Source: a virus (taxonomy: Duplodnaviria > Caudoviricetes). Taken from it: a stretch of DNA of 64,000 nt. The notes under the pieces are model-generated. The model searched no databases and had not been told where the DNA came from. It was given only the letters and a program-made list of their open reading frames with translations. Location: positions 2,439 through 66,438 of the IMG/VR virus record IMGVR_UViG_3300033067_000724; one strand, given 5' to 3'. A program made the translations under genes and the position numbers. Of the stretch, positions 25,201-40,579 are shown piece after piece (the stretch's first letter is position 1; each line of letters starts with the position of its first letter).

Positions 25201-27295
25201 AGAAAAGCGTCTATTTGACTCTAGACTTGAACAATCTACTGCTCTTGCTATTGCAATTAACGATGAAGCGCAGGCGCGTGATTCATTAAAGCGCAATATG
25301 AATGGTAGAACTTCAACTTCTGGTGTAGAAGATGCAAAAGCAAGTATAGAATTTACAAGACGTGCAAATGAATATAAATTAGCATCTATGGCTATTGAAA
25401 TAGACAACCTTAAAAATATTCGTCAAGCCGCTCTTGATATGCGTAAGAAGGAATTAGAACAAATTCTTAAAATTGCAGAAGCGTCTCCAGATGCAAAAGA
25501 CCCAGAAAGTCAAAAGGGTATTCTTGCAACAAAGAAAGCAATTGCAGATATCGACAAAGATAGGGCAACTGTTGGAGAAGAAATTGCAAAGAAAGAAATG
25601 GAACGTCAAGCCCAGGTCATTAAGGGAAATATTGATGCAATTAATGGTGCATCAAGAGTTTATGATGAAGAAGAGAAACTAAAAGATATTCGACTACAAG
25701 GTGCAATGAAGTTAATTGACCTTTCTCGGGCTTTAAAGAATTCTACTAAGTCAATGTTTGATGCCCAAAAGGGTATTACAGATGCAATCCGTGGCAAGAT
25801 GGATGAAGCGGCTAATAATATTAAAGAAAAACGTGGTGCACTATCTGCTGCATTTGATGGTCTAAAGAGCGCAAGAGCGGCTCTAATTGACGCAATGCAA
25901 GGCGGAACAGACGCTTTCACAGACTTCAACTTTGAATTAGCAAAGGCTACAGTTGCTTCACGTAAAATCATGGGAGACTTCTTTGGTCTACGTGATGAAG
26001 CTGCCAATCTATCCACTGCACTAAACTCTGTAATCTCAGCAGCACAAGCAGCAGGAGCATCTGAAGAGAAGTTAACTGAACTTCGTCATCAGGCTGCATC
26101 TGAACAACTTGAAATTTTCTCAAGACTTCTAGACGAACAAAAGAGCAAAGCAGATAAATTCTTTACATCTTCTGGTCAAGATAGACAGGGGTTCGTACAA
26201 GGTCTTGCCGCAATTCAAAGTATCGTAAGTCAGTTTAATGGTAATATTGACAACTTTAGAGGAATGGACCAAGGTCAACTTAATGACCTAGGGCGTTCTC
26301 TCATGTCTCTACCTCAAGACCTACGTGAAAAAATCTCAGGCGCTTTAGACCAATTACCAAATGGTGTTGGTATCGCTGGCTTAACACAAGACCAGATTAA
26401 AGAAATTTTCCAAGGTGCTACACTTGGTGAATCTAAGGCTGTTGGTATTGAAAGACTTTCAGATACTATGCAAACAGTTGCAGACCTTACAAAGAACGTT
26501 GCAGAATTAAATAAGACACAATTAGTAAATCAACAGAAGAGTATGGTTGACCTTCGTGCCAACGTTGCAAATGCAAAAGAACAAGTATTAATTGCTAAGA
26601 ACGCTCTATATCAGGCACAACTTGATGCAGCAAGTACACAAAAGGCAATTAGAGATGTAATGTCAACAATTGATTCTCAAATCGGAGAATACCGTCAAGA
26701 ATTTAAGAATAAAGCCGATTTAATTATCGCATCAACAAAAGACCCACAAGAAAGACAAGAAAAATTAATTCAACTACAGATTGAGTTAAATGATAAGATT
26801 ACAGAAATTCTAAATGGTAAACAGGGAGATATTGGAAAAGCAGGACCTGGATTTAAAGTAGACACACTTAATGGTGGTGCACCAGCTGCAATACGTACTG
26901 GTCCAGGTGCAGAAATGGCTAACTATATTGGCGATGCAATCAATAAGGCTAATAAAGAACTATCAGATTCAATGGGTAATCTAAGAGCATTATTATCAGG
27001 AGCATGGTCTGATAAGATGGGTGAGAATACAGACGCGATGAGTAGGTTGTCAGAACAGATTGCAACCGCAGCTTCTTCTAAGTTAGAAGATACTAAGGCT
27101 GAAATCAATATTAACCAGACCCAGACAATTGATATTACTGGCGCAACTGAAATGGTTCAACAGATTATGAACGCGCTTAACACTCGTGGATTCGTTACAG
27201 AAGAAGAGTTAAATGATATTAGAGTGACAATCGGTAAGATTGTTGAAGACCAAATCCGTGCTGGTGCTGCACGACCAGGAGCTTTGTTTAGATAA
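22253..27295 (+). CDS. Tail tape measure protein
   Basis: 1680 aa, Ala/Lys/Glu helical; TP901-like segment (AFDSSLRDINKIL...GTSISQAFG...IGGISALLERTRASGPVIATFFKTL). Confidence 0.9.
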   Translation: MPRQFLLQGSAVIRKIQISAAARQQLQNLVINVDVSKVQHALNQLGTQIQNIFKPIQKAGSSSSGMQKLASSINGVTNAANRASTATKKVDALLFQVIRKASAFRISTIIINSFFNAINDATRFTIAFDSSLRDINKILRLNDSDLQKLGEGLINIAMRYNQSAEEVALAAKSAAQAGLFKNSATGAEKTAVTLDLAAKAAMIAQTSTLSYEESLQALLSISKQTSTSIEDATILLTKFSAVEDASAIDAKELTEVFKRAGTSISQAFGPNLNTAIGGISALLERTRASGPVIATFFKTLVSRLQGTNKEVVQAFDSLGISIEDKLTSRIKQPFELLTELSEKLKGKGGADTGRIIGQIGGIRQAELFKALLEELPKTQGGTSRSTELAAAAATGFADQIKKAEQDSAKLSARINELQQSFYGFVHSMKDKLLPTFEKVVGYATQLVKLLTADTGSGLLKSLLEVVAIAGTAGLGNQLLGGFLTKKKQTPQASAAQSAAAQAAGYSSVGLPTQKRVTLGAQQKPWKKFGNVIKDATSHLTAFSTSSMLLALATKGVAGKMEESGNQALVGMGKILDSFAGLLVLGPKIAAIVTLFSTLTDNISDTWLGGKIGHSKGNNSIDDAIAFEESELKDNFKNNVRDFLDGATKFIFGKNKKNAFARDKDLSRGNLEELYQRKKSTMFEGGVNKENVAEADRILNAFNGTIKEFSNTLAEAMNQTALTKEDLNAKATELFNTLSADDKVKEFFDIINKSPEQLAKLGVELQSLFQTAMNASGGTIEPEKQKKVLGDVAARYARNQNLRALIPQTSSYTDQNVEEDKKLAEERSKVTEATFEALTAEEGLYASRSGEGINSLRRMIELENEVNRTKERAYAIEIENIKRKQKADAERAFKQAQTKKSVADQLLEDNIAKHKTISPEFFQILTDGITEANKELEQATKDFANFANSTQNVEELAKAQRKFDEERLSNLAKQMENTAKLVEAEKRLFDSRLEQSTALAIAINDEAQARDSLKRNMNGRTSTSGVEDAKASIEFTRRANEYKLASMAIEIDNLKNIRQAALDMRKKELEQILKIAEASPDAKDPESQKGILATKKAIADIDKDRATVGEEIAKKEMERQAQVIKGNIDAINGASRVYDEEEKLKDIRLQGAMKLIDLSRALKNSTKSMFDAQKGITDAIRGKMDEAANNIKEKRGALSAAFDGLKSARAALIDAMQGGTDAFTDFNFELAKATVASRKIMGDFFGLRDEAANLSTALNSVISAAQAAGASEEKLTELRHQAASEQLEIFSRLLDEQKSKADKFFTSSGQDRQGFVQGLAAIQSIVSQFNGNIDNFRGMDQGQLNDLGRSLMSLPQDLREKISGALDQLPNGVGIAGLTQDQIKEIFQGATLGESKAVGIERLSDTMQTVADLTKNVAELNKTQLVNQQKSMVDLRANVANAKEQVLIAKNALYQAQLDAASTQKAIRDVMSTIDSQIGEYRQEFKNKADLIIASTKDPQERQEKLIQLQIELNDKITEILNGKQGDIGKAGPGFKVDTLNGGAPAAIRTGPGAEMANYIGDAINKANKELSDSMGNLRALLSGAWSDKMGENTDAMSRLSEQIATAASSKLEDTKAEININQTQTIDITGATEMVQQIMNALNTRGFVTEEELNDIRVTIGKIVEDQIRAGAARPGALFR

Positions 27296-39937: not shown

Positions 39938-40579
39938 ATGGCTATTTCAGGCATAATTCAATTTCACGCATCTTCAGGCGCCCGTTCGCACCCTTACCAA
40001 CTCGACCCATTTGTTGCCGGTTCCGGCACAGAATGGAACCGTATTGGCTTTTTCGGGTCTACTGGTCCTGGGTCTTTCGTAACCGTTTCTACTTATCAAG
40101 ACACTACTTATGCTTGTAATGAAAGTGGTATTGCTCCAAATATTGGTGTAAATACCTACTCTGGTATTCTCCAAAACCTTAAATATGTTAACTCAGCATC
40201 AGTTAATCCTAACGGGTCTGGTTCAGTTGCGCTTAGCACTATTACCGCCCCTGATGCAACTTTACGTGTACGCTTTACCAATCCTTCTGGTACAGCCGTA
40301 CAAACTCAAAACGCAAAGATTCTTTGCGTACAACTTGGCGCTACTTCTGGTGTCGCTTCTGAAAGCGCCCTAGTGTCAGGTATCACAGTTCAAGTATTTG
40401 AAGTCGTAGTAGACTCATCTTGGACACAAATTTCTCAAACTGGTACAAACTCTAAGAACCTTGGTAGTCGTGCAACAAATTCAATTATCCACGATTATCA
40501 CCTAGGTATTTCTGTAAGCCCAATTAATACGGGTGAAAAGAAAGACTTTGCCTTCTTATTTAAACTCGAGTACCTCTAG
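39938..40579 (+). CDS. Putative structural protein (Ser/Gly/Thr-rich)
   Basis: Late promoter, AGGAG SD, high-expression codons. Confidence 0.6.
   Translation: MAISGIIQFHASSGARSHPYQLDPFVAGSGTEWNRIGFFGSTGPGSFVTVSTYQDTTYACNESGIAPNIGVNTYSGILQNLKYVNSASVNPNGSGSVALSTITAPDATLRVRFTNPSGTAVQTQNAKILCVQLGATSGVASESALVSGITVQVFEVVVDSSWTQISQTGTNSKNLGSRATNSIIHDYHLGISVSPINTGEKKDFAFLFKLEYL

Follow-up and report, generated by a model that had tools for sequence, protein, structure and literature searches.

The stretch of DNA considered here, called the window throughout, spans 64 kb of the IMG/VR virus record IMGVR_UViG_3300033067_000724 (66,438 bp), which is rated 38% complete; its source is an uncultured phage with a genome of about 170 kb. 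The plus strand carries almost every gene in the window. Our subject is the dipeptide serine-glycine (SG) in the proteins of the tail module, the distal part of which occupies positions 27295-40579. An earlier, sequence-only reading had noticed that SG outnumbers the reverse pair, glycine-serine (GS), in outer virion proteins and had taken it for a distributed sequon directing a phage-encoded glycan shield. The tail proteins, named below by the first position of their genes, are these, with the SG and GS counts and the expected number of SG:

17424..18410, plus strand: proximal tail protein, 328 aa, upstream of the tape measure; SG 7, GS 0, expected 2.4
18478..19782, plus strand: probable major tail protein, 434 aa; SG 8, GS 3, expected 3.2
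27295..28776, plus strand: distal tail protein, 493 aa, directly 3' of the tape measure; SG 12, GS 4, expected 3.9
28785..29321, plus strand: beta-sandwich tail protein, 178 aa, paralogue of 29733; SG 8, GS 0, expected 2.2
29733..30320, plus strand: tail protein, 195 aa, paralogue of 28785; SG 7, GS 2, expected 2.2
30939..31331, plus strand: tail-module protein, 130 aa; SG 2, expected 0.6, a protein too short for a verdict by itself
31321..33972, plus strand: fibre or baseplate protein, 883 aa, with Laminin_G_3 and PKD domains; SG 35, GS 11, expected 11.5
33972..37484, plus strand: tail protein, 1170 aa; SG 22, GS 10, expected 8.8
37870..39903, plus strand: tail protein, 677 aa; SG 14, GS 8, expected 6.8
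39938..40579, plus strand: Ig-like beta-sandwich tail protein, 213 aa; SG 9, GS 6, expected 2.8

Pooled over the ten tail-module proteins (4,701 aa), SG occurs 124 times against 44.4 expected (observed/expected, O/E, 2.79; z 11.9), and the highest value among 2,000 shuffles made within proteins was 66. GS over the same proteins stands at 45 against 44.4 expected (O/E 1.01), while SS and GG fall to 0.66 and 0.67. Among the 400 dipeptides SG is the sole outlier, the runner-up being Gly-Thr with z of 3.8. Serine precedes 27.6% of the glycines in the tail proteins versus 6-12% in control phages, and the other pairs ending in glycine are mostly depleted, apart from Asn-Gly, Leu-Gly, Val-Gly and Tyr-Gly (O/E 0.45 for Pro-Gly, 0.28 for Lys-Gly, 0.57 for Glu-Gly, 0.87 for Thr-Gly, 0.91 for Asp-Gly and 1.34 for Asn-Gly). 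Outside the tail module, the rest of the window has an SG O/E of 1.12. Every count given in the sequence-only reading was reproduced exactly, including its controls (SG 2 in the 688 aa of TerL, 2 in the 485 of DnaB, 5 in the 1035 of DnaE and 10 in the 1680 of the tape measure), and its argument that the asymmetry between SG and GS is not compositional is borne out by the GS total and the shuffles.

The signal is frame-specific and therefore acts on the protein: within the tail genes the three reading frames contain TCTGG 68, 1 and 0 times, and all six serine codons are in use, in agreement with the protein-level selection proposed earlier. The frame test rules out a DNA-level motif. There is a codon-pair bias in the tail genes, in that TCT makes up 55% and TCA 15% of the serine codons that precede a glycine codon, versus 31% and 38% elsewhere; the scarcity of TCA before GGN may reflect avoidance of the Shine-Dalgarno-like AGG that TCA-GGN forms.

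The pairs also share a context, with the consensus [A/N]-[P/A]-S-G-[V/I/T/M]-[I/Y/W]. The residue directly after the glycine is hydrophobic at 56% of sites versus a background of 33%, and proline and alanine are raised 3.3-fold and 2.3-fold at the position preceding the serine; Asn-Gly and Thr-Gly pairs lack this context. Acidic residues are rare beside the pair (Asp 0.15-fold and Glu 0.67-fold at position -1, Glu 0.22-fold after the glycine). The Ser-Gly xylosylation sequon of eukaryotic proteoglycans, to which the motif had been likened, has acidic flanks. The dipeptide is the same, but the flanks here are Pro/Ala and Val/Ile/Thr/Met, with Asp and Glu depleted, and the likeness fails at that point.

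The window belongs to a super-clade of uncultured phages of 150-238 kb (G001, G011, G016 and G023-G028) that have in common a capsid protein (about 40-60% identity), TerL, tail-tube-like proteins, DnaE and a glycosyltransferase gene, called GT-L below. The distal tail modules of the super-clade are wholly different, with open reading frames (ORFs) of 5,000-7,800 aa in some members. No cultured relative was found in the phage genome collection searched. ORF sets of the relatives were called mechanically, and for several sister-clade records completeness is 42-71%. Every one of the 95 homologues of 33972 (1170 aa) has an SG O/E of 1.5-3.0. Across 52 IMG/VR relatives (25-43% identity) the pooled O/E is 2.05-3.16 over all seven tail ortholog groups, so that the comparison across related phages called for by the sequence-only reading finds the excess clade-wide; in the same relatives the adjacent replication genes have values of 0.3-0.9, and a further neighbour, 42136, has 1.54. 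The excess is maintained in relatives of 35-49% GC. In two complete relatives (176 kb, 47% GC; 170 kb, 39% GC) a significant excess is found almost only in tail ORFs. Distant tail-spike-like genes of these two are SG-rich as well (End_tail_spike, and a weak BclA_C-like match), as are two more small ORFs without a Pfam match, and the ORFs left over have an O/E of 1.10-1.17. A signal of this kind (z about 12, clade-wide) is too strong to ignore, whether the pairs are structural or glycosylated.

The SG excess lies wholly in positionally conserved sites. In six families, such "old" sites number 3.7-11.5 per sequence for SG versus 0-2.1 for GS, and "young" SG sites are about equal to young GS sites and to expectation. 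Family by family, the 25 pooled orthologues of 27295 have an O/E of 2.96, with 9.1 conserved SG sites per sequence versus 2.1 for GS; S18-G19 of 28785 is unchanged in 27 sequences, and S13 of 39938 and S71 and S629 of 33972 likewise belong to invariant sites; the 31 orthologues of 29733 have an O/E of 2.73 and those of 31321 one of 2.53; about ten SG sites of 33972 are nearly invariant across the main clade; and the 37870 family, at about 25% identity, keeps 7.3 conserved SG sites per sequence and none of GS, Thr-Gly, Asn-Gly or Gly-Thr. Where the glycine is kept, the serine of an SG pair is kept in 0.65 of alignment cells, versus 0.25 for other serines. Fixed sites without an excess of newly arisen ones fit poorly with a distributed shield selected for its density, and this part of the earlier interpretation is not upheld.

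AlphaFold2 (AF2) models of two proteins, 28785 (predicted local distance difference test, pLDDT, 70) and 39938 (pLDDT 87.5), are both beta-sandwiches. In these two models all 17 SG sites lie in loops (8/8 and 9/9) and none in a strand. The glycine stands 1-2 residues ahead of a strand start at 8 of the 17 sites (5 of 9 in 39938), versus 5 of 26 other glycines, and no site directly follows a strand. The structural mapping suggested by the sequence-only reading is answered in part: the loop location holds for both models, and many of the sites are found next to strand starts. Foldseek/VIA searches with the 39938 model returned generic Ig-like or pilin-like sandwiches only (Z at most 6.1). The SG-rich proteins are beta-rich where examined, that is, in the two models and in the LamG and PKD domains of 31321. 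Among virion proteins SG is sparse in the tape measure, the portal, the capsid protein and the chaperones, classes that are generally helical or HK97-fold. The specificity to outer virion proteins claimed earlier stands for all-beta tail, fibre and cement proteins but fails as a rule for every outer protein: the major capsid protein has 1 SG.

We tentatively favour, while granting that it may well prove wrong, the view that the SG pairs are a lineage-specific, positionally fixed loop-to-strand junction motif of all-beta tail, baseplate, fibre and cement proteins. The consensus hexapeptide would close a surface loop and lead into the beta-strand after it. The glycine would give the backbone angles that let the chain turn into the strand, and the serine would cap or pack against the backbone, as in junctions of a type I turn with a G1 bulge (P-D-G type). 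The sites would have been fixed early in each protein family and retained by purifying selection, so that the excess would be inherited with the families. Some of the SG serines may also be modified, alongside a structural role. In favour of a structural motif, the excess follows the families across the super-clade, graded from 1.0 to 2.6, with conserved glycosyltransferases present throughout.

In a type I beta-turn with a G1 bulge (P-D-G or x-N-G junctions), Asp or Asn is usually as readily used as Ser. The likeness is that of a small polar residue plus glycine, often with a proline before, leading from loop into strand in the two models. The differences are that serine alone is enriched here (2.79, versus 1.34 for Asn-Gly, 0.91 for Asp-Gly and 0.87 for Thr-Gly) and that a single phage lineage shows the preference.

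Several observations weigh against the structural reading. Serine before glycine displaces Pro, Ala, Lys and Glu, not Asp or Asn, and so is not merely an exchange among turn formers; a swap of Asp or Asn for Ser is ruled out by the unchanged usage of Asn-Gly and Asp-Gly. When an SG serine is replaced, Thr, Asn and Asp are no more favoured than at other serines (0.93-, 1.18- and 0.92-fold), which counts against a simple side-chain capping role. At least nine families without detectable homology (blastp; hhalign probability below 1%) favour the same dipeptide, and a factor acting in trans on all of these proteins would be a simpler account of that convergence. Paralogy between SG-rich tail families was detected by blastp for the 28785/29733 pair only; these searches rule out repeats or paralogy as the source of the excess. 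Tail proteins of control phages are without the excess, with an SG O/E of 1.02 in T4, 1.20 in T5, 1.55 in lambda, 1.27 in Che8 and 0.89 in SPP1, and the excess is thus not a general property of tail proteins. A stretch of crAss001 was left out of these controls, being from the non-structural half of that genome. The milder bias of lambda counts on the structural side and may be set beside PVPred-SCM, which has SG among the top 20 dipeptides typical of virion proteins (PMC7072630); that listing fits a mild general bias, not a threefold excess.

The last point against a structural motif concerns the sister clades. A profile search for homologues of 33972 among 1.84 billion representatives retrieved full-length homologues in sister clades (E 1e-60 to 1e-165) whose pooled SG O/E is 1.22. 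Ten SG columns are retained by 60% or more of the main clade. There the sister-clade proteins have D-T, N-N, D-N or gaps, with only two sites shared. Judged from these alignments, the fold of the 33972 family needs no SG, and for this family the SG-poor homologues rule out a fold-determined motif. At three sister-clade loci (L079-L081) the 33972 homologue and the next gene have an SG O/E of 0.25-1.5, and the remaining tail genes of these phages have 1.2-4.8, mostly above 2. These two are the sole large tail proteins there without the excess, and in the main clade, likewise, the lowest excess is in the 33972 protein and the gene after it. The two proteins may be less exposed or built differently.

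Another possibility, which we think unlikely while giving it real weight, is that the SG serines are putative acceptors of a cytoplasmic, Ser-specific O-glycosylation carried out by the phage's own glycosyltransferase (GT) cluster on tail proteins that are folded or still folding. An initiating GT would read the loop-before-strand motif and others would extend the glycan, at fixed positions of the tail. The genes in question are the following:

54561..56387, plus strand: GT-L, a 608-aa GT4-like glycosyltransferase with a four-cysteine insert and a DUF4214 domain
56387..63998, plus strand: the rest of the glycan cluster (54561-63998 in all), with five more GT-like genes and the three genes below
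59972 (start): PseB/CapD-like dehydratase
62443 (start): C5 DNA methylase
63333 (start): SDR epimerase, cut by the end of the window

The six glycosyltransferases and two nucleotide-sugar enzymes counted by the sequence-only reading were recovered with Pfam. For 54561 the GT4-like assignment is supported by a PDB profile search, in which the nearest solved structures are GT4 enzymes (BshA, MshA, PimB); in Pfam, 54561 and 56387 score just below the Glycos_transf_1 cut-off. The placement of GT-L among GT4 enzymes gives no indication of its acceptor. Four invariant cysteines of GT-L (C297, C300, C328 and C331 in the window's numbering) precede the DUF4214 domain, and the insert that holds them looks like a zinc ribbon within the GT-B fold. 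Relatives of GT-L occur on 232 IMG/VR contigs of large phages, and in the sister genome G016 a 1228-aa ORF joins GT-L to GT2 and GT9 domains. The 54561 and 56387 proteins (54561-57511) have 5 SG each (O/E 2.6 and 3.9), but the orthologues from G001 and G011 have 0-2, so that the SG in the window's GTs are probably noise.

A modifying enzyme would suit a directional, Ser-specific dipeptide that is enriched independently in unrelated tail families and whose serine is so much better retained than others and seldom exchanged for Thr. It would also suit a fold that does without SG and five control phages that lack the excess. GTs are found in every SG-rich genome, and the window has its six GT-like genes and two sugar-nucleotide enzymes. 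More widely, every one of the 22 related genomes examined has GTs: each of the 16 long main-clade genomes carries several GT2 and Glyco_trans_1_2 genes, and each of the six sister-clade records at least one GT. Among these 22 there is no GT-less relative, and therefore no GT-less control.

There is bacterial precedent as well. TibC and AAH heptosylate Ser, not Thr, for instance Ser313 in the ..QNSGGAVI.. segment of AIDA-I/TibA, an S-G site (PMC4358343). There a cytoplasmic enzyme modifies many Ser, and not Thr, of a beta-rich surface protein, and S-G is followed by a hydrophobic strand (PMC4358343). The candidate sites here, in loops ahead of strands and with a Ser seldom replaced by Thr, may be likened to this. 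The differences are that the GT9-like family of these enzymes was not found in the main clade here, and that their substrate is a 19-residue beta-helix repeat where ours are candidate sites in unrelated tail proteins. As an analogy, TibC/AAH is the nearest mechanistic precedent for a sequon. Mycobacteriophages offer a phage precedent, in that virions are glycosylated by the phage's own GT genes, with glycans on the C-terminal tails of capsid and tail-tube proteins (Freeman et al. 2023, as cited in PMC12619734). The glycans there are C-terminal, where we see a distributed dipeptide and a capsid protein without the motif, and the tail proteins of the mycobacteriophage Che8 are, as noted above, without the excess.

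Against glycosylation, no GT was found whose presence tracks the SG excess across the super-clade genomes compared. GT-L is the sole GT common to all SG-rich genomes examined (blastp), and it is equally present in SG-poor ones: five complete super-clade genomes with GT-L have an SG O/E of 1.00-1.58 in their S/G-rich ORFs (1.00 in G026), versus 2.0-2.6 for the main clade and G016 on the same measure. All five share DnaE with the window and most share TerL, their capsid protein is 40-58% identical where detected, and they are without the window's distal tail families. The tail orthologues that are shared retain some of the excess in G023 and G024 and have lost it in G026-G028; those of 17424 retain it across the super-clade (in G023, for example, 6 SG and 1 GS with 1.8 expected). 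Homologues of 56387 occur in SG-poor genomes, and none was detected in the SG-rich G016. Two further SG-rich records, G019 and G020 (67-76-kb fragments), have GT-L and an epimerase only, among the four sugar-related Pfam families searched. The GT-L homologues of the SG-poor phages are about 30% identical and could therefore differ in acceptor, and GT-L may be regarded as a candidate partner of the SG motif and no more.

Gene context and enzyme family also tell against glycosylation. The GT cluster lies in the replication module; the exact late-promoter motif GTGTATAATA, which stands ahead of virion genes at 7466, 9913, 18415, 30527 and 39908, is absent in and before the cluster. No GT9 (PF01075) match was found in the partial genome G000 or in three complete ones of the main clade (G001, G011 and G005), the two GT9 domains seen being confined to the sister-clade G016, and no GT41 enzyme was found in the main clade, which leaves it with neither a BAHT-type (GT9) nor a GT41 candidate. 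The low count in the major capsid protein and the want of excess among newly arisen sites have been described above. The link between the excess and the phage's GTs, as first proposed, is not supported, and the glycan-shield interpretation as a whole is partly supported.

It is also conceivable, if quite improbable, that some other factor acts in trans, through a different modification of serine (phosphorylation, acylation or similar) or through a tail-assembly chaperone that binds [P/A]-S-G-hydrophobic. The convergence over unrelated families and the specificity for Ser would also be explained by such a factor, and since the excess is uncorrelated with GT content the reader could be something other than a GT; but no candidate enzyme or chaperone was identified, the dedicated searches having been for GT9 and GT41 only, and the positional fixation is equally accounted for by structure. 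That the excess is an artefact of composition, Ser/Gly clustering in loops, repeats or a DNA-level motif is scarcely credible, despite the abundance of Ser (9.8%) and Gly (9.6%), their concentration in loops, the six or so SGxLGGY repeats of one protein and the TCT/TCA codon-pair shift, because clustering would raise GS, SS and GG too, which with the shuffles (at most 66 versus 124) rules out composition and loop clustering, because TCTGG keeps to one frame (68/1/0), because removing the repeats leaves about 117 SG versus 44 expected, and because the excess holds from 35 to 49% GC.

If the motif is structural, it would amount to a lineage-specific "grammar" for building beta-rich tail proteins. 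The SG sites are very stable alignment anchors and could help in recognising tail proteins within the clade, which is uncultured. Were the serines glycosylated, glycans would sit at fixed loop positions of nearly every tail, baseplate and fibre protein, and the motif would be a predictive rule for phage virion glycosylation, the first sequon-like one, common to a large clade whose uncultured members have genomes of 150-190 kb. Such a rule would bear on particle stability, host recognition and evasion of immunity or defence, and would also account for the extensive GT clusters, otherwise unexplained, that many big environmental phages carry.

Within 31321, residues 552-650, between the LamG and PKD domains, contain about six S-G-x-[I/L]-[G/A]-G-[Y/W] units spaced 14-28 residues apart, a region reminiscent of a short beta-solenoid or of a fibre repeat. 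The two domains of 31321 are the only Pfam domains among the distal tail proteins, and none of the window's tail proteins had a match in PHROGs. The remaining landmarks of the window are these:

5373 (start): TerL
7461 (start): probable portal
12150..12629, plus strand: capsid cement protein, 159 aa, Pfam Phage_cement; SG 4, expected 1.3, weak alone
12642 (start): major capsid protein, a weak match; 1 SG only
22253 (start): tape measure, 1680 aa, PhageMin_Tail
43647 (start): DnaB-like replication gene
49797 (start): DnaE-like replication gene
53433 (start): sigma factor

The GC content is 53% in window positions 1-4000 versus 35-41% over the remainder.

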